Positions 1,043-55,591 of a DNA stretch of 64,000 nt are shown here, piece by piece. Each line of letters starts with the position of its first letter. The stretch's first letter is position 1. The translations under genes and the position numbers were made by a program. Origin of the DNA: Bacilli bacterium. GTDB lineage: Bacteria > Bacillota_I > Bacilli_A > RF39 > UBA660. Under the pieces are notes generated by a model. It did not search any database. It was not told the origin of the DNA and saw only the letters and a program-made list of their open reading frames with translations. The DNA lies in contig JAFRZY010000006.1 in NCBI GenBank assembly GCA_017442305.1, forward strand, positions 41,538-105,537, read 5' to 3'.

Positions 1043-2509
1043 ATGGTGATAAATATGAAAAATAAAAGTATATGGCTTGATATTAAACAAAAAAATATAT
1101 GTAGAAGTTTAGATAAAGATATTGAAGTCGATGTTTTAATAATTGGTGGTGGTATAACTGGAATTAGTGCTGCCTATCAACTACAAAATAAAAATCTAAA
1201 AGTATGTTTAGTGGAACAAAATGAAATTGCATCGGGAGTTACTAGTAAAACAACCGGTAAGATATCTTATATTCAAGAAAATATATATTCTAAAATTTCT
1301 AAATACCATGGAATAGAAAAAGCTAAGTTGTATTTGAAATCTCAACTTTGGGCAACTGAAGAAATCAAAAAAATCATTAAAGAAAATAACATTGATTGTA
1401 ATTTAGAAAAAGTAAGATCATATGTTATTAATAATAATTCAGAAAAATACAAAGAAGAACTAACTATTTTAAAAAATATAGGAATTCATTTAAAAGAAAG
1501 TAAAACACTACCAAATAACGAAACTGTAACTAATGCTTTTTATGTAGAAGATACTTATGTATTTCATCCACTTAAGTATCTATATGCTTTAAAGAACGTA
1601 TGCCTAGATAACAATATTTTAATTTTTGAAAATACTAAAATAATTTCAATAAGGAAAGAAAAAGTTTTTTTGTGTAGAACTAGTAATGCCACTATTAAAG
1701 CCAAATATGTTGTTTTAGCACTACATTATCCCTATTTTTTATTTCCATTTATAATGCCTATAAAATCATATATAGAGCAATCTTATATCAAAGCAACACT
1801 AACTAATCAAAACCTTAATTTTAGTAGTATTACAATTACTAACCCAGTTAGTTCATTACGATATCACGAGGATAAAGATAAAATATATGAAATAAGTTTG
1901 GCAAATTCTCATATTACTTGTCTAAAAAATAATGATAAAAATAATTTTTCGGAATTAATAAACCAAAGCAAAAAAACTCCTATTTATATATGGAGTAATA
2001 ACGATATTATGACTAATGACGCAATTCCTTTTATCGGATCACTTAATAAAGAAAATAATCTATTAATTGGAACCGGTTATAATACTTGGGGAATGACTAA
2101 CGGCGTTTTAGCAGGAAAAATACTTTCGGATATTATTTTAAAAAAAGAAAATCAATTTATTAACTTATTTAATCCATTAAGAAAAATGAATATAGGTAAA
2201 ATTCTAAATTTCCCAATAATTGTTGGAAGTAACTGCTACTCTTTTCTTAAATCAAAATTAAAAAAACAAAAAAATTGGTATTCTGATAATGTTAGGTTCG
2301 AAAGTAGAGACGGAAAAAACATAGCAATCTATACTGATGAAAATAAAAAAGAACATATTGTTTACAACGTATGTCCTCACTTAAAATGCAGTTTGATTTT
2401 TAACGAATTAGAACGTACATGGGATTGTCCTTGTCACGGTTCTAGATTCGACATTGACGGTAATGTAATTGAAGGCCCAAGTAACTATAATATAACTTAT
2501 AAAGAATAA
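1043..2509 (+). CDS. FAD-dependent oxidoreductase with C-terminal Rieske [2Fe-2S] domain (YhfW-like)
   Basis: N-terminal dinucleotide fold DVLIIGGGITGISAAY. C-terminal Rieske motifs CPHLKC...CPCHGSRFD. Confidence 0.75.
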   Translation: MVINMKNKSIWLDIKQKNICRSLDKDIEVDVLIIGGGITGISAAYQLQNKNLKVCLVEQNEIASGVTSKTTGKISYIQENIYSKISKYHGIEKAKLYLKSQLWATEEIKKIIKENNIDCNLEKVRSYVINNNSEKYKEELTILKNIGIHLKESKTLPNNETVTNAFYVEDTYVFHPLKYLYALKNVCLDNNILIFENTKIISIRKEKVFLCRTSNATIKAKYVVLALHYPYFLFPFIMPIKSYIEQSYIKATLTNQNLNFSSITITNPVSSLRYHEDKDKIYEISLANSHITCLKNNDKNNFSELINQSKKTPIYIWSNNDIMTNDAIPFIGSLNKENNLLIGTGYNTWGMTNGVLAGKILSDIILKKENQFINLFNPLRKMNIGKILNFPIIVGSNCYSFLKSKLKKQKNWYSDNVRFESRDGKNIAIYTDENKKEHIVYNVCPHLKCSLIFNELERTWDCPCHGSRFDIDGNVIEGPSNYNITYKE

Positions 2510-4679: not shown

Positions 4680-5672
4680 TTATCTTGTTATATTATCTTT
4701 TTTATTTAATTCACGCTCATAAACAGTTTTTAAAAAGTCTACTATATTACTATTGCTTAAATAATCGGTATCTATTTCATCAAAAATTGCACTAGAATTA
4801 TTAAGTCTTCTAATAGCTAAAAACAAATCTTTTATTACTTCTAAATTAGGATAGATATTTTCTAACAACTTTATTTTAGCAATATTATTTTGAGCTTTAG
4901 CTTGTATATATATTGTAGTGATATAAACTAATTTTTTATATAGTTCAAATTTATTTTCGCCACTTAATTTATACGTTTCTAATAATAATCCTTTTAGTTC
5001 TTCGTCATTTTTTATTTCGATTTCCTGTTCATTAATCATAACAACGTAATGACAATCATCAGGATTTTCTCCTTTAAAAACGAATTTAATATTATCTTCA
5101 TAATATTCTCGAAGTAAGAAAATCATACTTACTATATCTTTATTTTTTGGTAAAGATTTAACCTCAGCATAAAACGTATATTTTTGATTAATTAATTCTT
5201 TTTCTTCATCCGTATTTGCTTCACTTAATTCTTTTAAATAAGTCATCATGATTAAATATATACGATTATTACCACCCATAATATAACATTTGCCATCTGA
5301 ATCGCGATTTAATTCAATTGGTGTATCATGCGTTGCGTAATTAGGTGATTGATTTTTTTGTTTTAGAGTTTCACTATAATAAGAAGGATTTTGATAAAAC
5401 ATCCGAACATTTTCATCTCCCCGCTTACTTTTTATAAATGACTCTAAAAAAGTTAAATCTTCGTATGTAGGATGTGACGTTCCAACAATATCTTTTAAAC
5501 AAAATGGTAATATAAAAGCTTGTGTATAAACACTTGAATATAAGAAATCTTTTTCCTCTTTGGTAAGTTCAAAAGCATAAGACTTATTTACTTTTGCAAA
5601 TTCTTTAGGTAAATTTTCTAAATCTATTCCTACATGATTTAAAAATTTTAATTTTGTTTCACTTATTTCCAT
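4680..5672 (-). CDS. hypothetical protein (330 aa), co-operonic with the DUF3841-like gene
   Basis: Long ORF with a 15-nt gap to the upstream gene. No confident family. Weak DGxxR-like GGNNR segment. Confidence 0.5.
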   Translation of the reverse strand: MEISETKLKFLNHVGIDLENLPKEFAKVNKSYAFELTKEEKDFLYSSVYTQAFILPFCLKDIVGTSHPTYEDLTFLESFIKSKRGDENVRMFYQNPSYYSETLKQKNQSPNYATHDTPIELNRDSDGKCYIMGGNNRIYLIMMTYLKELSEANTDEEKELINQKYTFYAEVKSLPKNKDIVSMIFLLREYYEDNIKFVFKGENPDDCHYVVMINEQEIEIKNDEELKGLLLETYKLSGENKFELYKKLVYITTIYIQAKAQNNIAKIKLLENIYPNLEVIKDLFLAIRRLNNSSAIFDEIDTDYLSNSNIVDFLKTVYERELNKKDNITR

Positions 5673-5687
5673 GTTTTAAAACTCCCA

Positions 5688-6359
5688 TTATAAATGTTGA
5701 TAATAATCTTCAATCCAATTAAACCTTTCGCCATTACTTCTTATATAATTATATGATCCATAGGTATACCCATCTTCTTTTAAGAATTCAATTTTTTCTA
5801 TGTCTTCTAAGTTTATACGCCAGATACATCCCTGTAAAATATCTCCATTATTTGTAATACATTTATCAAAACTTTTTCGTATTTCTTTACAAACCTCTAA
5901 AAATTCATTATCTGTACGATGATTTTCATATTTGTCTTTTCGTACATATGCTTTTAAATCATCTGAGGTAATATTATATTTAATCAATTTTTTGGCAAAT
6001 TCATTTTTATCTTTTAGATTATTAGGTATATAAGTATTGTTTAATATAAAAGAAAATAATCTATAATCGGTAATAAATACTTCTTTAACATCTTTATTAA
6101 AAGTAATTTTCACATCAAATCCCACTACTTTATTTCCCTTATGTTTTGGTGGGCAATTACCTTTTTTGCATTTTACCCAACACCACACAGGATATTTTGC
6201 ATTAGAAAAATTTTTTATTTGTTGATTCATTTTTTCTATAATCCAATCATAAGCATATCCGGATTTTTTTAAATTAATAAAATCTGGGTTACATTCTAGA
6301 TAACCTTTATACATTAAATTTTTTAATGCATCCATAGATTGAAAGGTAACTAATTTCAT
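5688..6359 (-). CDS. DUF3841-like hypothetical protein
   Basis: N-terminus MKLVTFQS..., ~220 aa with Cys/Trp-rich core. Resembles the DUF3841 family by pattern memory only. Confidence 0.45.
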   Translation of the reverse strand: MKLVTFQSMDALKNLMYKGYLECNPDFINLKKSGYAYDWIIEKMNQQIKNFSNAKYPVWCWVKCKKGNCPPKHKGNKVVGFDVKITFNKDVKEVFITDYRLFSFILNNTYIPNNLKDKNEFAKKLIKYNITSDDLKAYVRKDKYENHRTDNEFLEVCKEIRKSFDKCITNNGDILQGCIWRINLEDIEKIEFLKEDGYTYGSYNYIRSNGERFNWIEDYYQHL

Positions 6360-6915: not shown

Positions 6916-7119
6916 TTATCCTTCCTTTAACATATCTAATAATTGGTTATAATGGTTAGTATGCATTTTGGCAATACTAGAAATAAGTTTTTTTATTTCT
7001 TTATTACTAACCATATTTTTGTACATATGACATTTTTTAGAATAAATCATATTCCAATTTAACATATCTTCAATATAGGATAAATCTTTAGTTGATATAA
7101 TCTTAGGTATTTCATTCAT
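6916..7119 (-). CDS. small hypothetical protein, possibly a second Coat_F-like partner
   Basis: 67 aa, immediately adjacent to the CotF-like gene. Paired small Coat_F genes are common in spore formers. Confidence 0.35.
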   Translation of the reverse strand: MNEIPKIISTKDLSYIEDMLNWNMIYSKKCHMYKNMVSNKEIKKLISSIAKMHTNHYNQLLDMLKEG

Positions 7120-7209
7120 AAAATCTTTCCTTTCATTGTTAGTATGGAATAAATTTAGTTAAATAAACTAAAAACTTGCTGAAACAATAAAAATATTCTA
7201 AAATAATTA

Positions 7210-7473
7210 ATGGTGATTTTGATGGACTTAGATAAATTAATTAATAACGCAATTAATGACAATAGTTTAGTAAAAATAAATAGCAATATTTATTTAACTA
7301 AATATCAAATAGCAATACTAGATAGATTTCATATTGAATATAATAATTGTAGTGATATTAAAGAAATTTTATTTTTAATTGATGAATATTTGGAAAGTGA
7401 ATATGAAGAAGAATTAGATGAACTTGCCAAAAATTTACAGGAATTTAGTTACTATAACTTTACACATAAATAA
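7210..7473 (+). CDS. hypothetical protein (87 aa)
   Basis: ORF only. Confidence 0.3.
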   Translation: MVILMDLDKLINNAINDNSLVKINSNIYLTKYQIAILDRFHIEYNNCSDIKEILFLIDEYLESEYEEELDELAKNLQEFSYYNFTHK

Positions 7474-7538
7474 CATTTTTATTTAAAAATCATAAATTTT
7501 ATGTTAATATATTTAATACACAAAAAGGAGATGTACAT

Positions 7539-8258
7539 ATGGCTGAAAGTTTATATACAATTAAAAGAGATAGTATTTGTGTAGGAAAGGTTATTACAAA
7601 TTTTACAATTTTAGATAATAAACATAATTTACTTGGTAAACCTATGAGTTTAGGAGAATATTCAGAATGTAGAAGCATGCTTTTCGCTTCTAATGAAGGT
7701 GGATTTGCTGAAGACTTATTATACTCTACTCCACAATATCCTATATTTCGCGAATGTAATGATGTGGTCTGTAAGCAAGCTAAATTTATGATAATTGATC
7801 CTGTTAACATGGGAAAATTTCTAAAAGCAGTTGGATATGAAGAAGATGTTGAATATTTAGATGTTGAAAGAATTAGAAATAGATACTTCAAAAGATTTTA
7901 TACCACAACTCACGCAGAAGAATTTGGAATGACTGAGGTTGATATTGATATTCAATTAGCTAATGAATTAAGTCAAATGAAAAATTTAACAGAAGAACAA
8001 ATTGCATGCTATAAAAGATTAAGAAAATTTCAAAACTTTTTTGGGTTAAGAAGTCAATACGAATATTCACAAGCTATTCAAGAAACTCCATTAACTGAAA
8101 TCAGTAAATTCTTTTTACCACCAGAGTATTTTGAAATACTAAGAAAATATGGAGATAGATCAATATTTGAATTATATTTTGGATATGCTGATAAAATGAA
8201 TTCATTTAAGCCTATTAAAGAAGAAGGTCCAATTAGAAGTTTAAAAAAATACAATTAA
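7539..8258 (+). CDS. hypothetical protein (239 aa)
   Basis: Good RBS AAAGGAG upstream of ATG. No recognisable family. Confidence 0.5.
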   Translation: MAESLYTIKRDSICVGKVITNFTILDNKHNLLGKPMSLGEYSECRSMLFASNEGGFAEDLLYSTPQYPIFRECNDVVCKQAKFMIIDPVNMGKFLKAVGYEEDVEYLDVERIRNRYFKRFYTTTHAEEFGMTEVDIDIQLANELSQMKNLTEEQIACYKRLRKFQNFFGLRSQYEYSQAIQETPLTEISKFFLPPEYFEILRKYGDRSIFELYFGYADKMNSFKPIKEEGPIRSLKKYN

Positions 8259-8280
8259 TATAATTAATTGTATTTTTTAT

Positions 8281-9354
8281 TTATTTTAAATAAGAATCTA
8301 ATGGTTTTACACGATATTTTGGATCATCCATTTGACTAGTAGGAATAAATCCTGGTTTAGCATTTATTACATCAGGAATTCTATTTACAATATCAGCACA
8401 TGTAAGTTCTACTGTACAAGGTCTATCTACTACGACGCTTGTATCTGGTTCTCCATAAACTGTCCATTCGTTTTTATCAAATACATCCGGCGCATATACT
8501 TTTCCAATACACTCTGCTTCTAAAATTATTCCTTCTTTTGTCTCCGCTTTAACTACAGCGCTCATACCAATTGCCAATCCAGCTTTAATATCCATTTGTA
8601 AAGTTTCTGAATGTAAATCCTCTTCATAAGTAATTGGAACACATTTTTGACTTATTGATTCAATTGTTAAATTTAATTTATCAGCTAACCATCCTACTGT
8701 ATTCCACATATATGATGGTAAAAATTCACGATTATTAATTAAATTATTTCTTTCTTCTGTACTAATATTATCAGCAGCAGCAACTTCCCTTTCGAATTCT
8801 TCTAAAGTTAAACCTGCGCCATGAGCTTTGGCAAGAGCAATACCATAGTCTTCTACATTATAAGAAGAACTTCCCTTTATTTTAGTTATACGATGAGTAC
8901 TTCCTGCTAAAACTGTGATTAAATTACCCCAGAAAATATCTTGATAACCACAACCAGTTATTGTACAGTTATTTGCTTTAGCAAGTAAATCTAATTCTTT
9001 GTGTAGCGTTGGATTACTATTACTTGAGAAGAATGCTTCTTCGCATGTTGTAATAGCATTTACTCCGTTACTTGCACATACTCTTAAAACATCTTCAATG
9101 TCATTTAATAAACTCATTGTTGTAACAATTGCGATGTCTGGTTTAGTATTTTCTAAAACTGTATTTAGATTCTCTACTAAATCAATTTTTACTCCTTTAT
9201 TATCGCCACCCATAACGTAAGCGATATCTTTTCCAATTACTTCTGGGTTAATATCAACTGCCCCTACTATTTCAGCCCCCTTTTCGTAAACATAACGCAT
9301 AGTATATTTACTCATTTTTCCACAACCAATTTGCACTACTTTAATCTTTGTCAT
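8281..9354 (-). CDS. NAD(P)-binding dehydrogenase with DapB-N-like Rossmann fold (amine dehydrogenase / 2,4-diaminopentanoate dehydrogenase-like)
   Basis: N-terminal [14 protein letters not shown] Rossmann motif; ~350 aa architecture like the Ord/Kdd amine dehydrogenase family. Overlaps the upstream AAA gene by 14 nt. Confidence 0.4.
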
Positions 9355-10270
9355 TTAAATCAACTCCTTCATTTTTTATTATGTCTGCAAATTCAATTTT
9401 AAATCTTTCAATTTCTTTTCTTTTAGCATCTTCATATATATTCTTAGCATTACATATAGCTTTATAAAAATGTTTTAATGTTACTGTTTTACTATTGTCA
9501 TATAATGCATAAGTAAACGCATTTGCAACTATTGTAAGGCATATATCTGGATAACGACTAGCTATTTCGTATACTCTTTTATATTCATCAGTCATTTCTA
9601 CAATAAAAGCCATGATCTTTTCTGCTATAAATTCCGTATATCCTAACTTGACCCCAATTTGTTTTTCGAGTTTCGGAATCGTTCCCATTAATATTTTGAC
9701 AACAGTTGGTTTATTAGCTTCTAGCACTTCTATTTTTTGGAATCTTCGTAGAAACGCTCTATCCCTTAAAATATATTGTTCATATTCTTCAGTAGTAGTA
9801 GCTCCAATCATTTTGATTGTTCCTCTATCTAAACCTGCTTTTAACATATTAGCAAAGTCCATTCCACCACTTCTATTTACTAACAAGTGTGTCTCATCTA
9901 TAAAAAGAATCGTTTTATTCTTAGTAGCTAATTCTTTAACTAGTAAATCAACTTTACTATCTACTTGTCCTTCACTTACGGCTTGCCCCAATAAACTAGT
10001 TATATTAAGTTTGATGATTTCCCAATCTTTCAGGGCATCCGGTACTAAATTGTTTTTTATGCGATACGCTAGTCCTTCAACAATGGCAGTTTTACCTATA
10101 CCAGGTTTACCAACTAAAAGAGCACTTTTTTCTGGAGTTAAAAGAGTCAATATAGCTTGTTTGATTTCATCATCACGAGCTATAGCAGGATCTGTAATGT
10201 ATTCCTTAATTGTTAAGTTTTCACCATATCTTTCTAACATACTAATTCTTTCATTATCCATAAGTATCAC
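9341..10270 (-). CDS. standalone AAA+ ATPase resembling the Clp/Hsp100 D1 module
   Basis: LERYGENLT...DP.IARDDEI entry motif; Walker A GKPGIGKT; Walker B ILFIDETH; sensor-1 GATT; Arg finger RRFQ. No Clp N-domain or D2. Pore-loop KYRGE replaced by VSEGQ. Confidence 0.7.
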
Positions 10271-10359
10271 ATCCTATAATAAAATTATAGCATTTTACAA
10301 AATAATTTTAAATAAAATTGCTATAAGTTGACAATTTATACATACTAAAAGACAGTAAT

Positions 10360-11070
10360 TTAAATACTGTCTTTTAATTGTTTTTTGATTTTTTTTACTT
10401 TCTTTCGTAATTCTTTTTCCGCATTTTTAATTTTAACTTGCAAATCAGGGAAAGCATTATGCAAACGTTTAACAAGAATTGATTTTTCTAATAATATTTC
10501 ATGCACTTTTTCACTTATTTGTTCAGTACTATCTTTAGCAACTGTTATTATGGTATTTTTGAAAGTGTATATGATTTGAAAGGAGATAATATTATCAATT
10601 ATAAAAATTAAAAATAAAATAATTGTGATTAAATATAAATTATTAAAAGATATTTTATTAATTAAAGATAACAAATAAGGATTAACGATATAAATAATAA
10701 CTATGCCTAAGATACCAAACGCTAACATGTATTCTAGGCACACACGACCGTTAATGTTAACTTTTCGGTCAGAATAGTCCCACCAACGAGCTTTAAATAG
10801 TTTTTCCATAATATAACTAGTTGCATATTCTAATCCTGAACATATAATTAAAGACATAAAGAACAATATAATAGGATTTTTAGAAAAGTTTTGTAAACAA
10901 ATTGTTATAAGAATGCACCCTATTCCATAAATTGGACAATAGGGACCTATTAAAAATCCACGGTTTATAAATCTTTTATTTCTAATTAATCCAATACATA
11001 CTTCCATTAGCCAGCCTATAAAAGAATATAGCAAAAATAACAAGAAATAAACACAAAACAAATTCATCAT
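10360..11070 (-). CDS. polytopic membrane protein, CmpB/DUF1113-like
   Basis: FLLYSFIGWLMEV and GPYCPIYG motifs characteristic of PF06541-type membrane proteins. Confidence 0.4.
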   Translation of the reverse strand: MMNLFCVYFLLFLLYSFIGWLMEVCIGLIRNKRFINRGFLIGPYCPIYGIGCILITICLQNFSKNPIILFFMSLIICSGLEYATSYIMEKLFKARWWDYSDRKVNINGRVCLEYMLAFGILGIVIIYIVNPYLLSLINKISFNNLYLITIILFLIFIIDNIISFQIIYTFKNTIITVAKDSTEQISEKVHEILLEKSILVKRLHNAFPDLQVKIKNAEKELRKKVKKIKKQLKDSI

Positions 11071-11200: not shown

Positions 11201-13090
11201 TTATTCCATTACTATTTCGTAAGGTGTATTTGTATCTATTCGACCATCTCCAGTAAATTTAACGTCTGCTTTTAAGTTAATTACAGGACGAACTTTACGA
11301 CTATCCCCGATTGTTGCATCATAATTTGAAATAGAACCATTTGCAGAAACATAATATACATATAACCCATCATCAAAATCACCTACATCAAGAAAGTAGC
11401 TAGGAGTGGATGTCCAAAACGCTTCGTTACTATATAAATAATGTGTTGCATTGGAAACTACTCCGCCAGCCATTAGTACTTCATCAGCAGTTAATAATCC
11501 TATAGGTTTATCTAATAGACCATTCCCTTTCCCTTCACTTTTTGTATATCTATCGCTCTTATTTGTACATATTAATTTTGGGGCTCTGTTTCGATAAATT
11601 CTAGTATATGGATTAAAGTATACTTCACTCCATCCACTTGAACTAGGATCGGTTATTTCATTGTAATGTTCATCCCAATATCGCCCGATTGATATTTCAC
11701 GGTCATTACAGAATATTCCATCTGCTATATATTTGCCATATGTTTCCTCCAAATTATCTTCGTACCATTTATCTACTACTCCTTTGATTATACTATCCAC
11801 TTGTATTCCGTTACCATCATCATATGTATATCCGACATATTTAGAATTATAATATCCAGTGTTATAAATCGCATCTGCGATTGTCGCTGTATGTGCTACA
11901 CCATTTGCTACAGGCGCTGTTCCATCATAAACAAGCCGGATTGTACCATCGCCATTAATTCTTACAATTCGCCAATACATTGGCATTTCCTCGACATATG
12001 TTACATCGTTTACCGTACTTTCTGATGCATAACTCCCAAATTTTACGTAATTATTGGTTGGCGCTCCTCTAAAATAATATGATATGCCTAAGTCGTCTTG
12101 GGCTTTATATAAACCAGCATCACTTGCAGTCGTGCCTTCACTAAATCCATTGCTTCCTTTTATAGTTTTTGCTGTTACATAATTCCCACTTGTTCCAAAA
12201 TTTGTTACTTCATATATAGTTTGACTTTCATATGTTGAACTGACGTTTTTTATTGTGTATTTTCCACATGTTTTCGTTCCATTTCTACATTCTTCCAATG
12301 TTGCTTGTGTTAGTGTCCCTGATAATGTATAATATCCGATTTCTTTATCAAATTTATATGTTGTTCCATACCAATAACTGTTTGATGTTCCGACACTTGT
12401 TGATGCTGCTGTTATCGTTGAGGCATCTCCTTCTGTCCATTCTGCACTTAAACTTGTTATGGCATCTGCTCCTCCATAGTTAGAAAGTATATCATATGCT
12501 AATGTGCCTTCTTTATATGGATTAAATATTCCCTGACCTATTGTTACACTGATTTTACTTCTAAATGTTTTATTTTGTTCACTGATTGGGGCATTTGCAT
12601 CTATCCAGATGCGTAATTCATATGTTACAGCATCATCTTCTGTTTCGTCTGATGCGCCTGCTAATGTGCCATATGCAAGTTTATTTGATTCATATGCTTC
12701 ACTTATTGTTGGCTCTGCATTTCCTTCAGCAGTTAGTAGTTTTATTTCTTCGTTTAACGCTACTTTAATTGCGCTTGCTTTAATTGCGTTAGTACTATCT
12801 CCTATACTTTCCAAATTTACTTGATAATCAACAGATGTACTACAGTTATTTGTTACTGTAAATTCGTATGGCGTTAGTTTCATTCCTTCGGTATCACTTA
12901 ACGGAAATTGATCAATTAATTCAATATCATTCTTTTCACCACTTAATGATATATCTAAACATCCTGATGAGATTACATTTTGATTTGTTTGAGTCTTTGT
13001 TACTAACCAGTATGCATATGTTACTCCGATTATTACTAGGAGTACTGCTACTATACTTATTACAGTGATTACTGTTTTTTTATTCTTCAT
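11201..13090 (-). CDS. large secreted protein with TasA/camelysin-type N-terminal signal region and a conserved C-terminal domain of unknown function (paralog of 62925-64000)
   Basis: N-terminus KK-hydrophobic-GVTYAYW...SSGCLDISLS parallels the B. subtilis TasA GGGTWAAF...ASGTLDLS SipW-type signal region. C-terminal ~300 aa (YYFRG...WRIVRINGDGTIRLVYDGT...GIFCNDREI...LICTNKSDRYT...GLLTADE...RPVINLK...PYEIV) is shared with the ORF at the window end. Confidence 0.6.
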   Translation of the reverse strand: MKNKKTVITVISIVAVLLVIIGVTYAYWLVTKTQTNQNVISSGCLDISLSGEKNDIELIDQFPLSDTEGMKLTPYEFTVTNNCSTSVDYQVNLESIGDSTNAIKASAIKVALNEEIKLLTAEGNAEPTISEAYESNKLAYGTLAGASDETEDDAVTYELRIWIDANAPISEQNKTFRSKISVTIGQGIFNPYKEGTLAYDILSNYGGADAITSLSAEWTEGDASTITAASTSVGTSNSYWYGTTYKFDKEIGYYTLSGTLTQATLEECRNGTKTCGKYTIKNVSSTYESQTIYEVTNFGTSGNYVTAKTIKGSNGFSEGTTASDAGLYKAQDDLGISYYFRGAPTNNYVKFGSYASESTVNDVTYVEEMPMYWRIVRINGDGTIRLVYDGTAPVANGVAHTATIADAIYNTGYYNSKYVGYTYDDGNGIQVDSIIKGVVDKWYEDNLEETYGKYIADGIFCNDREISIGRYWDEHYNEITDPSSSGWSEVYFNPYTRIYRNRAPKLICTNKSDRYTKSEGKGNGLLDKPIGLLTADEVLMAGGVVSNATHYLYSNEAFWTSTPSYFLDVGDFDDGLYVYYVSANGSISNYDATIGDSRKVRPVINLKADVKFTGDGRIDTNTPYEIVME

Positions 13091-51590: not shown

Positions 51591-52095
51591 ACATTGAACC
51601 TCCTTCGTTATCCCAAGGCCATGGATTTTCAAGCCATTTATATTTGTTTCCTACTTCATCATTAATTGTTAATGGACCATACATCTTGTTAAATTCTTCT
51701 TTTAGTTTTTTCTCTTCCATAATGTACTGTCTTAGAAGTCTAACTCCTTCTTGATCATCAGGATATAAATCCAAATATAAATTTAAATCTGTAATTGCAA
51801 AACATAAAGCCATAATATCGTATAACTTTTTCTCTCTTTCTGTCTTCGGATTTAATGGTAGATAAGTTAAATTTTTATAAGGCTTATATTCATCGCGAAA
51901 CATGTTACCACGCATAAAACCCTCTTTCACTGAAAATAGTTCGTTATTTTCTCTAGGAATGTCATTAAAATTACTGCCGGGAATTTCAAAAAAAGTTAAA
52001 TTAACATCATAATCGTTATTATCAAATAACATATAAAAAATACCTCCTACATTATAGTATGAGGTTTTATAAAGTTGGGTTGTGCTAATACCCAA
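51583..52095 (-). CDS. CotJA-CotJB fusion protein
   Basis: N-terminal half resembles CotJA. C-terminal half carries CotJB motifs LNLYLDLYPDD ... YGPL ... WPW. Stop overlaps the cotJC start (ATGTTTAA). Confidence 0.6.
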   Translation of the reverse strand: MGISTTQLYKTSYYNVGGIFYMLFDNNDYDVNLTFFEIPGSNFNDIPRENNELFSVKEGFMRGNMFRDEYKPYKNLTYLPLNPKTEREKKLYDIMALCFAITDLNLYLDLYPDDQEGVRLLRQYIMEEKKLKEEFNKMYGPLTINDEVGNKYKWLENPWPWDNEGGSMYV

Positions 52096-52159
52096 GTATT
52101 ATTTTTAGAAAATTCCGTCAAATTACTGGCCTATTAAATAGTTTTATTGTATAATTATT

Positions 52160-54385
52160 ATGGTGAATAATATGGCAAAGAAAAAGAAAACAAAAGATTC
52201 AGAAGCTAAAAGCTTTACATATAGTGTTGAGTTAACAGGATTAATTTTAATACTAATCGGTATTATTGGATTTGGTTTTGGTCCAGTTGGTTCTATCATC
52301 AAAAAATTCTCAATGTTCTTAGTTGGTGGTTGGGCATGGATATTTTTACTTTTAATAACTTCATTTTTAGGTTTATATATGTTAGTTAAAAGAAAAATGC
52401 CAAAATTCTTCTCAACAAAAATGTTAGGATTTTATATTATATGTTTAATATTATTAGTAGCAAGTCATTTTGGTTTTGTAGAAAAATGTGCTGACGCAAA
52501 AGAAATATTTCAAGTAACCTTTGATAATTATATGGACAGGATAAGTTCTATAAGTGGTACTACAGCATTATTTACATCCGGAACTACTACTATTGAAATT
52601 GGTGGTGGAATAATTGGTGCCACTTTCTCTGTACTATTTTCTTCTTTATTTGGTATTACAGGAACAAAAATAGTATTATTCATTTTATTATTATTTGGTT
52701 TTATTTTATTCTTTAATGTTACGTTTAGTGACATGTTCTCAAAAATTAAGTCATTCTTTAGTAAATTTAAACTTGTTAGAAAAGAAAAGAATAACAAAGA
52801 ATTTAATACTAAAACTTTAGAATATGATGAAGAAGAAAAGAAAAAAGATGACAAGATTATTATTACTAGTGTAGAAGAGTTAAAAACTAATATGGTTAAA
52901 GAAACTGCTAATTATGAAACTGCAGATAATACAAATGCTTCTTATAGACTCCCTTCACTTGCTCTATTAGAAGATCCAGTACAAAATAAAAAAGTTAATT
53001 CAAATAATTTTACTAGAGCAAACAAAGAAACTTTAGAAAGAGTTTTAAACGATTTCCAAATAAAAGGACAAGTTGTTGAAATTCATATAGGACCCGCAGT
53101 TACACAATATGAGGTTGTTGTCCCTGCTGGAACTAAAGTTAGTAGAATATTAAGTATTAATAAAGAAATTGCTTTGGCACTAGCTGCTAAAGATGTTCGT
53201 ATTCAAGCTCCAATTCCCGGAAAAAGTACTATTGGAGTAGAAATACCTAATCCAAATATTAGTATGGTAAAAATAAAAGAAGTTTTGGGTTCAAGAGATT
53301 TTGAACAAAAAGGATCAAAAGTATTAGTTGCTTTAGGTAAAGATATCATGGGAAAAACTCAAGCAATGGATATTGCTAAGACCCCTCACCTTTTAGTTGC
53401 AGGTTCTACTGGTTCTGGTAAATCCGTTTGTATTAATACAATGTTAGCCTCTATACTAATGCGTTATAGACCAGATGAAGTAAAGCTTATGCTGGTTGAC
53501 CCTAAAAAAGTTGAATTATCAAACTATAACGGAGTCCCTCACTTACTTTGTCCAGTTGTAACAGATCCAAAAAAAGCTTCTATAATGTTACAAAAGATAG
53601 TTCAAGAAATGGAAGATAGATATAATCTATTTAGTGATAAAGGCGTTAAAAACATTGGGACTTATAATGAATGGGTTGAAAAAGAAAATAATAAGCATCC
53701 AGAAACCCAAATAAAGAAAATGCCGTATGTTGTTGTTATTATTGATGAACTTGCTGATTTAATGCTAGTTGCATCAAAAGAAGTTGAAGATTCTATTATG
53801 CGAATTACACAAATGGCTCGTGCAGCTGGTATTCATTTAATAGTAGCTACTCAAAGACCATCAACAGATGTTATTACTGGCGTGGTTAAAGCAAATATTC
53901 CTTCAAGAATTTCATTTGCAGTTGCTTCGCAAATTGATTCACGTACTATTTTAGATATGCCAGGAGCTGAAAAATTATTAGGTAAAGGTGATATGTTATT
54001 CTTACCGATGGGCGAAAATGTTCCTATACGTATTCAAGGATGTTTTATTTCAGATAATGAAATTGCTAAAGTAATAGATTATGTATGTAAAGAACAAATT
54101 GCTAAATATGATGAGAAAATGACTACTAACATTGATAATCAACCTGTTGCTCCAGGAAGTGATCCTGAAAACTATGATGATCCAATGTATAATGAAGTTG
54201 TTGAATTCGCTATTCAAACTGGTAAAATCAGTGCTAGCTTAATTCAAAGAAGATTTAGATTCGGATATAACCGTGCAGCTAGAATTATTGACTTGTTAGA
54301 AGATCGTGGTATAGTTGGACCGCAAAATGGTTCTAAACCTCGTGAAGTACTTGTCAAATTACAAGAATCTGAAAATAATGATTAA
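52160..54385 (+). CDS. ftsK: DNA translocase FtsK/SpoIIIE
   Basis: N-terminal TMs, linker, motor domain with Walker A GSTGSGKSV and DELADLM Walker B, C-terminal gamma winged-helix. Confidence 0.9.
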   Translation: MVNNMAKKKKTKDSEAKSFTYSVELTGLILILIGIIGFGFGPVGSIIKKFSMFLVGGWAWIFLLLITSFLGLYMLVKRKMPKFFSTKMLGFYIICLILLVASHFGFVEKCADAKEIFQVTFDNYMDRISSISGTTALFTSGTTTIEIGGGIIGATFSVLFSSLFGITGTKIVLFILLLFGFILFFNVTFSDMFSKIKSFFSKFKLVRKEKNNKEFNTKTLEYDEEEKKKDDKIIITSVEELKTNMVKETANYETADNTNASYRLPSLALLEDPVQNKKVNSNNFTRANKETLERVLNDFQIKGQVVEIHIGPAVTQYEVVVPAGTKVSRILSINKEIALALAAKDVRIQAPIPGKSTIGVEIPNPNISMVKIKEVLGSRDFEQKGSKVLVALGKDIMGKTQAMDIAKTPHLLVAGSTGSGKSVCINTMLASILMRYRPDEVKLMLVDPKKVELSNYNGVPHLLCPVVTDPKKASIMLQKIVQEMEDRYNLFSDKGVKNIGTYNEWVEKENNKHPETQIKKMPYVVVIIDELADLMLVASKEVEDSIMRITQMARAAGIHLIVATQRPSTDVITGVVKANIPSRISFAVASQIDSRTILDMPGAEKLLGKGDMLFLPMGENVPIRIQGCFISDNEIAKVIDYVCKEQIAKYDEKMTTNIDNQPVAPGSDPENYDDPMYNEVVEFAIQTGKISASLIQRRFRFGYNRAARIIDLLEDRGIVGPQNGSKPREVLVKLQESENND

Positions 54386-54436
54386 TAAATAATTACTATT
54401 AGAAATATTTTATGATAAAATTATATAGTAGGAAGG

Positions 54437-54988
54437 TTGATAGAAATGGCAAAGAAAAAAAGTTTGAAATATATACCAACTAAAAATTATATTATTGCAG
54501 CTTTGTTAATAGCAGTTTCTATATTCTTAGTATTTTATTTGTTTGAATGGTATAAAGTTAAACAAATTGATAAGTATGGTAGAAGTTATTTAATGGAAAG
54601 TAATACTTTAAATTTAGAAATTAAAAGTTTTGAAGAAATACCAATAGTACTTATGGAAGCTCCATCAGATTATTTTGTGTTTATAAATTATCTAAATGAA
54701 AAAGCAAATTACAAATTAGAAAAAAATCTAAAAAAAATTATTGATGATTACAACTTAAAAGATATTTTCTATTACATGAATGTTACTGATATCAGAGAAA
54801 AAGATGATGATTATATAAATAATTTAAATAAACATTTTAATAGTGATGATAAAATTAAAAATGTTCCTGTAATACTTTATTATCGCAGCGGAAAACTTAC
54901 AGAAGTAATTAATTCCAACGAAGATAATATAATATCAGCATCAGAGCTAAAAAAAATATTAGAAATATACGAAATAAAAAAGCCATAA
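54437..54988 (+). CDS. hypothetical membrane-anchored protein (183 aa)
   Basis: Single N-terminal TM. No family recognised. Confidence 0.4.
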   Translation: MIEMAKKKSLKYIPTKNYIIAALLIAVSIFLVFYLFEWYKVKQIDKYGRSYLMESNTLNLEIKSFEEIPIVLMEAPSDYFVFINYLNEKANYKLEKNLKKIIDDYNLKDIFYYMNVTDIREKDDDYINNLNKHFNSDDKIKNVPVILYYRSGKLTEVINSNEDNIISASELKKILEIYEIKKP

Positions 54989-55057
54989 GGCTTTTTTTAT
55001 TGCTATTTTTACTATTTTAAAATATAATCTATTTAGATTTGTAAATGAGGGATAATT

Positions 55058-55576
55058 ATGTTAAATGTTGTTTTATTTGAACCAGAAATACCAGGAAATA
55101 CTGGTAATATTATGCGAACTTGTATTGCATGCAATGCTCGCCTTCACCTTATCAAACCATTAGGATTCTCTTTAGATGAAAAATATATTCGTCGTAGTGG
55201 TGTAAATTATATTGATCATTGTGATTATACTGTTTACGAAAATATTGAGGATTTCTTTAGCAAAAATAAAGGCAAGTTTTTCTTCTCTACTCGTTATGGT
55301 CACAAACCACATACAAGTTTTGATTTTAGCGATAATTCAGAAAACATCTATTTTGTCTTCGGAAAAGAAAGTACAGGAATACCTCGAGATATTTTAAAAC
55401 CACATTTAGATACATGTATGCGTTTACCTATGACAAGAAACGTAAGAAGTCTTAATCTTTCAAATACAGTAGCAATTGTTCTTTATGAAGCTCTAAGACA
55501 GCAAAACTATAATGATTTATTATTTGATGAACCACACAAAAGTAACACATTTATTGAAGATTATGAAACCGAGTAG
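55058..55576 (+). CDS. trmL: tRNA (cytidine/uridine-2'-O)-methyltransferase TrmL (SpoU family)
   Basis: LFEPEIPGNTGNIMRTCIACNARLHLIKP and ESTGIP motifs of SPOUT TrmL. Confidence 0.8.
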   Translation: MLNVVLFEPEIPGNTGNIMRTCIACNARLHLIKPLGFSLDEKYIRRSGVNYIDHCDYTVYENIEDFFSKNKGKFFFSTRYGHKPHTSFDFSDNSENIYFVFGKESTGIPRDILKPHLDTCMRLPMTRNVRSLNLSNTVAIVLYEALRQQNYNDLLFDEPHKSNTFIEDYETE

Positions 55577-55591
55577 AAATCTACTCGGTTT

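Follow-up and report, generated by a model that had tools for sequence, protein, structure and literature searches.

The 64,000-nucleotide stretch of DNA analyzed here (hereafter the window; contig JAFRZY010000006.1 of an uncultured gut Bacilli bacterium of the lineage UBA660) carries on its minus strand two overlapping genes, one coding for an orphan AAA+ ATPase that resembles only the first ring (D1) of Clp/Hsp100 proteins and the other for a relative of the native amine dehydrogenases (nat-AmDHs). We recovered both minus-strand open reading frames (ORFs) where the initial annotation had placed them, the ATPase at 9341..10270, counted from a GTG codon, and the dehydrogenase at 8281..9354, with an overlap of 14 nt. 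The probable start of the ATPase is the ATG at 10261 (the GTG at 10270 adds three codons), because its homologs are 305 to 311 amino acids long and open with M-(D/N/E)-x-x-(I/V)-S-M-L-E-R-Y-G, and because an AGGA is located 10 nt upstream. The resulting stand-alone Clp-D1-type protein (9341..10261, minus strand) has 306 amino acids and contains the Walker A motif GKPGIGKT, the Walker B motif LFIDETH, the sensor-1 GATT, the arginine fingers RRF, VSEGQ at pore loop 1, and a lid. The nat-AmDH family protein (8281..9354, minus strand) has 357 amino acids, with the Rossmann motif IGCGKMS, the stretch TTCEEAFF, and a DAP_DH_C domain. Within the overlap itself (ATGACAAAGATTAA, 9341..9354, minus strand), the ATG of the dehydrogenase occupies 9354-9352 and the TAA of the ATPase 9343-9341.

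The surrounding signals are consistent with a compact transcription unit. An AAGGAG Shine-Dalgarno sequence for the dehydrogenase, read directly from the DNA, is found within the 3' end of the ATPase gene (9364..9369, minus strand), 9 nt before the ATG at 9354. A promoter-like site with an extended -10 element (TTTAAA, a 17-nt spacer, TG-n-TATAAT; 10284..10312, minus strand) is found 22 nt upstream of the ATPase ATG and agrees with the consensus at 10 of 12 positions, although such sites are no more common across the region than in its shuffles, so that it counts as a consensus match only. Between it and the upstream CmpB-like gene, which codes for a membrane protein and stops at 10360, there is a 12-bp palindrome (10346..10376), a candidate terminator or insulator that would separate this gene from the ATPase-dehydrogenase unit. 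Directly after the dehydrogenase stop codon, the sequence can fold into a perfect AT-only hairpin of 16 bp, its arms being A/U runs (8244..8278; -11.5 kcal/mol, z=-5.0, with none of 200 shuffles folding as well), which is likely a bidirectional terminator common to the dehydrogenase and the convergent ORF at 7539..8258 (plus strand). From its sequence, the locus looks like a self-contained bicistronic operon made up of promoter, ATPase, dehydrogenase, and terminator. Both genes are most likely co-transcribed, here and in many relatives, and their translation is possibly coupled as well.

The ATPase had been described as only the first AAA module of a Clp protein, and the domain analysis agrees: the protein is a full D1, with large subdomain and lid, in a single module. 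PF00004 was the sole Pfam match (47.7 bits, against a cutoff of 21.2). Neither Clp_N, AAA_lid_9, nor AAA_2 was matched and, with a length of just 306 amino acids, the protein has no N-domain, no second AAA module (D2), and no ClpP-docking loop, as also stated in the initial annotation. In class-I Clps, the IGF/LGF-type loop that docks ClpP sits in D2. The elements for docking adaptors and DnaK are missing too, and alignments to ClpB and ClpC place the N terminus at the linker between the N-domain and D1. Matches to NCBIfam were confined to the D1 segment (positions 161-372 of the ClpA profile), with scores of 164.9 for ClpA (cutoff 993), 158.8 for ClpB (1232), and 155.2 for ClpV (885), so that values of about 155 to 165 bits fall 5 to 10 times under the NCBIfam Clp cutoffs (885 to 1417). 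All 44 PDB sequence matches were to the D1 of ClpB, Hsp104, ClpC, ClpA, or ClpE. The AlphaFold2 (AF2) model, built from a 21-sequence alignment, was confident (predicted local distance difference test, 88.8; predicted template modeling score, 0.86) and showed a compact lid without a coiled-coil insertion, i.e., without an M-domain. Foldseek matched it to the D1 of ClpB, ClpC1, and ClpA, lid included (query-normalized template modeling score, 0.70 to 0.76; probability, 1.00), and the target-normalized score reached 0.86 against the 268-residue ClpC1 chain 8yd1_E.

The reported replacement of the pore loop KYRGE by VSEGQ was borne out by the HMMER alignment, which sets VSEGQVDSK under KYRGEFEER of the ClpB D1. 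The pore-1 position is nonaromatic in all 81 ATPase orthologs, and the loop itself is conserved among them as a polar and acidic S-[ED]-G-Q-x-E-N-R-[IV]. Walker A, the D-E of Walker B, the sensor-1 GATT, and the double arginine finger RRF are invariant down to 37% identity (alignments of 21 and 14 sequences). Trans-acting arginine fingers of AAA+ proteins work only within an oligomer. Judging from these motifs, the module is apparently complete and competent for hydrolysis.

Thousands of homologs of the ATPase were found in the protein database, the best 120 showing 78% identity or more and a length of about 306 amino acids. Scanning one genome per species, we found a relative encoded at 371 loci, corresponding to up to 371 species, of which the best 80 were fetched; all of these are full length and 76 to 84% identical to the window protein. 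They come from metagenome-assembled genomes (MAGs) labeled "uncultured Bacilli/Tenericutes" from the guts of humans, rabbits, ruminants, chickens, and mice. At the same loci, identity to the window copies was 76 to 84% for the ATPase, 65 to 79% for RNase J, and 58 to 75% for the dehydrogenase; since it exceeds both of the others, the ATPase is among the most constrained genes of the region, and purifying selection acts very strongly along its entire length. More distant relatives, at about 40% identity, have around 500 amino acids, with an extra N-terminal region of about 200, and mostly keep Y-(R/V/I)-G in the pore loop, which suggests that the pore tyrosine was lost within the D1-only lineage.

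Some relatives carry additional segments. The proteins P0124, P0136, P0138, and P0143 (loci L082 and L086-L088; 54 to 59% identity) have low-complexity tails of about 170 to 540 residues, and the longest tail, of about 660 residues, was found in P0271. The tail ends share an acidic-aromatic motif (DDFFED, DDFFEEE, DDFYDK, or DDFYE) that resembles a short docking peptide at the end of a disordered tether. An alternative genetic code seems an improbable origin of these long fused relatives, given the low complexity of the tails and the fact that the long genes of the window are open under table 11. In rumen metagenome loci (L095-L126), the ATPase ORFs upstream of the dehydrogenase are open for 340 to 516 codons, suggesting that the ATPases of some rumen lineages carry N-terminal extensions, with putative start codons. 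The window also contains a canonical ClpC-like gene (60703..62844, minus strand; 713 amino acids) with two Clp_N domains, a D1 with GTKYRGEFEE, AAA_lid_9, and AAA_2. It is complete and hence this genome has a normal two-ring Clp besides the orphan D1, the two being 36% identical over D1.

The partner gene had been assigned to a DapB-fold protein of 357 amino acids resembling amine dehydrogenases, an assignment that we can extend: an N-terminal DapB-like Rossmann domain is followed by PF19328 (DAP_DH_C), and residues 4-346 of the query align end to end with the amine dehydrogenase CfusAmDH (6IAU; E=1.4e-89). Further matches were MsmeAmDH (6IAQ; E=1.5e-65) and MATOUAmDH2 (7R09; E=2.5e-40). Its TTCEEAFF aligns with ITIGEEAFY of CfusAmDH, and the EE pair is present in 117 of 117 members of the clade; of these two glutamates, the one at active-site position P3 is presumably that corresponding to E108. 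The active-site stretch GxGYQD(I/V)FWGN also aligns with CfusAmDH, with GYQD(I/V)FWGN kept in all 117 members. The catalytic glutamate at P3 is critical in the nat-AmDH family (PMC11164908). A difference from CfusAmDH is an insertion of about 16 amino acids (residues ~195-211) that is conserved throughout the gut clade. We considered this insertion as a marker of interaction with the ATPase and rejected it, as it is present with or without an adjacent ATPase gene. By sequence, the dehydrogenase is a further member of the known nat-AmDH family, and most likely it uses NAD(P)H to interconvert a carbonyl compound and an amine.

The initial annotation had allowed for a pair that never co-occurs elsewhere; at least 62 other loci carry it. 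The neighborhood of the ATPase was counted over 81 loci (the 80 genome loci plus the window) after calling and clustering their ORFs, and the dehydrogenase was linked in 38 of them. In 34 of these 38 pairs, including that of the window, the gap between both genes is at most 20 nt; 15 of those overlap, and an overlap of exactly 14 nt was found in 13 of the 38, the window among them. A further 36 of the 81 loci have at least 1.5 kb of downstream sequence and no dehydrogenase. Downstream of the ATPase, these unlinked loci have a convergent GroEL-like gene in 17 cases, a LigD-like gene in 7, and other genes in the rest; the usual upstream gene is glycosyltransferase-like. The GroEL/Cpn60-like gene of these 17 species (loci L001-L020, e.g., 6918..8468 on the minus strand of L019) is divergent in sequence, codes for about 516 amino acids, and is followed by three conserved genes without assigned function. 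On a neighbor-joining tree of the ATPase, the linked state appears in several deep clades with differing upstream genes (superoxide reductase, a PadR-associated membrane protein, a CmpB-like gene as in the window, and others), while one large clade has no linkage, which we read as a loss. The arrangement is probably ancestral.

Seen from the other gene, a metagenome scan with the dehydrogenase gave 80 loci (65 to 89% identity), of which the 60 with at least 1 kb of upstream sequence were used for counts. The ATPase is directly upstream in 25 of these 60; in the remaining 35, no ATPase gene occurs within about 4 kb, and the dehydrogenase is preceded by rplKAJL-mtnN, by a small XRE-like gene, or by others. 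Relatives of the ATPase at 55 to 66% identity adjoin YitT/Tex, IleRS/TrmB, or Mbeg1-like/Mn-catalase genes and the dehydrogenase was never found beside them, several of the loci of distant relatives being on contigs too short to inform. The linkage is dispensable in both directions. Since the two genes occur apart about as often as together, their products probably work independently.

Taking all this together, we favor, with moderate confidence, a co-transcribed but functionally separable unit formed by an orphan, probably nonthreading Clp-D1 ATPase and a native amine dehydrogenase. The ATPase would descend from the first ring of a Clp/Hsp100 protein and represent a widespread, so far undescribed orphan family. 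This family has kept the Walker A and B motifs, sensor-1, trans-acting arginine fingers, and lid, on which ATP hydrolysis in an oligomer depends, and has shed the N-domain, M-domain, D2, ClpP loop, and aromatic pore-1 residue, by which a Clp works as an unfoldase or partners a protease. The ATPase would assemble as a single ring and may use ATP as a switch or as a remodeler. It would work through surfaces distinct from a hydrophobic threading pore, and its task would be one of housekeeping, independent of the dehydrogenase. The latter would reductively aminate carbonyls or oxidatively deaminate amines with NAD(P)H. Several points weigh against such a separation. The adjacency is kept in at least seven flanking contexts over several deep clades of the ATPase and, because gaps this tight or overlapping maintained across so many contexts typify selected operons, a functional link between both proteins may still exist. 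The linkage counts refer to the flanks of each locus. The oligomeric state, the activity, and the lack of threading are predicted from sequence, as is the functional independence from the dehydrogenase, and some AAA+ rings do translocate substrates without the canonical pore-1 aromatic residue. On balance, a functional coupling of ATPase and dehydrogenase, if it exists, is unlikely to be obligatory.

In a rival reading, the dehydrogenase would have the D1-only ring as its dedicated partner (an assembly factor, activase, scaffold, or regulator), and both would act together even where their genes separate. Besides the retained adjacency, the recurrent 14-nt overlap, and the short gaps, it is favored by the position of the dehydrogenase Shine-Dalgarno sequence inside the ATPase gene and by the fact that the physiological role of nat-AmDHs is unknown. 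However, the two genes are unlinked in 36 of 81 ATPase loci and 35 of 60 dehydrogenase loci, the ATPase is the more conserved of the two and reaches lineages and contexts without the dehydrogenase, and the 16-amino-acid insertion of the dehydrogenase, specific to the lineage, is indifferent to the adjacency. A weaker objection is that we know of no activase without pore-loop aromatics that acts on a folded enzyme. Moreover, nat-AmDHs, including members from gut genomes, are active when expressed alone in Escherichia coli (PMC11164908). We consider a dedicated partnership unlikely. The chaperone or activase of the dehydrogenase, or obligate module, suggested in the initial annotation finds no support in the same evidence, as relatives of the ATPase are found in unrelated housekeeping contexts, and a dedicated activase role must be regarded as improbable. 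Just as improbable, in our view, is an ancestral module in which a single-ring, nonthreading Clp derivative assembles, activates, or regulates the dehydrogenase; if true, the nat-AmDH family would gain its first physiological handle, and no earlier example would exist of a Clp-D1 ring specialized for one metabolic enzyme.

The dehydrogenase could also be a mere neighbor of a protein that works with the resident ClpC or another Hsp100, either co-assembling with its D1 rings, capping or titrating them, or serving the Clp system as an ATP-dependent regulator or adaptor. The ATPase is a clear D1 paralog, with arginine fingers and intersubunit elements conserved, and has a ClpC in the same genome; the relatives of about 500 amino acids with a YRG pore loop and an N-terminal domain suggest descent from a working Clp. 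Against this, clpC, clpP, and adaptor genes are not conserved neighbors of the ATPase in the 80 loci, an identity to the ClpC D1 of just 36% leaves mixed rings uncertain, and literature searches gave no experimental precedent. Upstream heat-shock operators are absent as well: CIRCE had no match anywhere in the window, and no CtsR box was found near the ATPase or ClpC, the CtsR-like matches of the window being at chance level, so that heat-shock regulation of the ATPase was discarded. An association with ClpC seems doubtful to us. Far less credible, indeed close to impossible, is a decaying fragment of a disrupted ClpB or ClpC with an accidental overlap, an option that the initial annotation had raised as a frameshift nearby. 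Its resemblance to the D1 of full-length Clps is all that speaks for it, whereas we find a conserved stand-alone gene of 305 to 311 codons in hundreds of species (76 to 93% identity), with invariant catalytic motifs, a complete and confidently predicted fold, and an intact ClpC elsewhere in the window; because the dehydrogenase starts immediately downstream, there is no room for remnants of D2. Neither is the ATPase half of a cis-encoded split Clp, since the 80 genome loci contain no D2-like or Clp_N-like coding sequence near it, and a D2-only partner nearby was rejected for the same reason. A defense-system or phage origin of the pair was also discarded. PADLOC gave only weak generic AAA matches for the ATPase (TRIP13, 2e-8; IetA, 3e-6), PHROGs only a generic Clp model (phrog_4871), and the dehydrogenase had no match in either. 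A tblastn search against phages and plasmids retrieved full-length Clps alone, below 41% identity. One Mycoplasma hyopneumoniae "AAA family ATPase" match of 692 amino acids was read as a two-ring ClpB from its length alone.

Clp/Hsp100 proteins are textbook threading machines. Considering that a stand-alone D1 without threading or docking parts is kept at 76 to 84% identity over hundreds of species, the preferred reading of a separable ATPase points to an unrecognized, strongly selected ATP-dependent function in common animal-gut bacteria. More tentatively, it is conceivable, and more likely than the ancestral module with the dehydrogenase, that this ATPase on its own stands for a novel class of single-ring machines derived from Hsp100, whose pore is acidic and nonaromatic and whose gene belongs to the core of genome-reduced gut Bacilli. 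Full-text searches of the literature turned up neither a D1-only Clp family nor a link between such an ATPase and nat-AmDHs. For the latter family, of biocatalytic interest and natural role unknown, our data add a large gut clade. The most frequent neighbor of this clade is the orphan ATPase, which on present evidence gives no clue to a pathway. The published analysis of nat-AmDH genomic contexts with the synteny-clustering tool NetSyn revealed no conserved partner and did not clearly point to a metabolic role (PMC11164908).

The window has a G+C content of 24 to 34% and nearly all of its genes on the minus strand. Downstream of the dehydrogenase there is a species-specific region (4680..6359, minus strand, and 7539..8258, plus strand) coding for a DUF3841 protein (223 amino acids), a protein of 330 amino acids, and a convergent one of 239; the last two had no family match, and the region matched no defense-system model. 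Two paralogous proteins at 11201..13090 (minus strand, 629 amino acids) and 62925..63974 (minus strand, 349 amino acids) share the block MYWRI(V/I)RINGDGTIR...GLLTADE...RPVINLK. The longer one has by eye an N-terminal signal anchor, had no match in Pfam, NCBIfam, PADLOC, or PHROGs, and, compared with other species, is inserted between a DUF2383-like gene, located after RNase J, and the CmpB-like gene. Among the few plus-strand genes of the first 50 kb is one (1043..2509) coding for an FAD-dependent oxidoreductase (DAO) fused to a C-terminal Rieske [2Fe-2S] domain (488 amino acids). The GC skew is positive only at 52001..56000 (+0.07 to +0.14, against about -0.2 elsewhere in the window); no sign of a replication origin was seen.

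Compared with known systems, the dehydrogenase is closest to the characterized nat-AmDHs (CfusAmDH, MsmeAmDH, and MATOUAmDH2), with which it shares end-to-end homology, the EEAF region, and the GxGYQD(I/V)FWGN stretch; it departs from CfusAmDH in its insertion and in its source, an uncultured gut Bacilli. With Ord and DapB it has in common the fold superfamily (DapB-like Rossmann domain plus PF19328), but both identities were rejected, as its scores are far below the cutoffs (128.5 against the equivalog cutoff of 400 for Ord, NF040740; 21 against 122 for DapB), and no ornithine-fermentation genes were found nearby, either among the window ORFs or in the clustered loci.

The orphan ATPase, in turn, has its best sequence and structure matches in the D1 of class-I Clps (ClpB, ClpC/ClpC1, and ClpA). 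It shares with them the pre-Walker linker LERYG..DP.I.RD.EI, the Walker A and B motifs, sensor-1, and the double arginine finger, and in our own comparison its lid helix RYPD answers the LPDKAID of Clps. Unlike them, it is a single ring of 306 amino acids without Clp_N, M-domain, D2, or ClpP-docking loop, and the KYR motif of pore loop 1 is swapped for the acidic nonaromatic loop in every ortholog; save for the D1 fold and the catalytic motifs, it has none of the features that define class-I Clps. One AAA+ module per chain is also the architecture of the class-II Clps (ClpX, HslU, and human CLPB/Skd3), whose modules are of the D2/HCLR type with aromatic pore loops, whereas the orphan module belongs to the D1 type (classic-clade-like) and lacks an aromatic residue in its pore. 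The D1 of p97/Cdc48 and the D2 of NSF are degenerate-pore AAA+ rings with structural or regulatory roles, always fused to a second, working ring. The orphan ATPase resembles them in combining an intact nucleotide site with a nonaromatic pore-1 loop, and differs in standing alone. By analogy with these rings, the combination suggests a nonthreading role for this ATPase.

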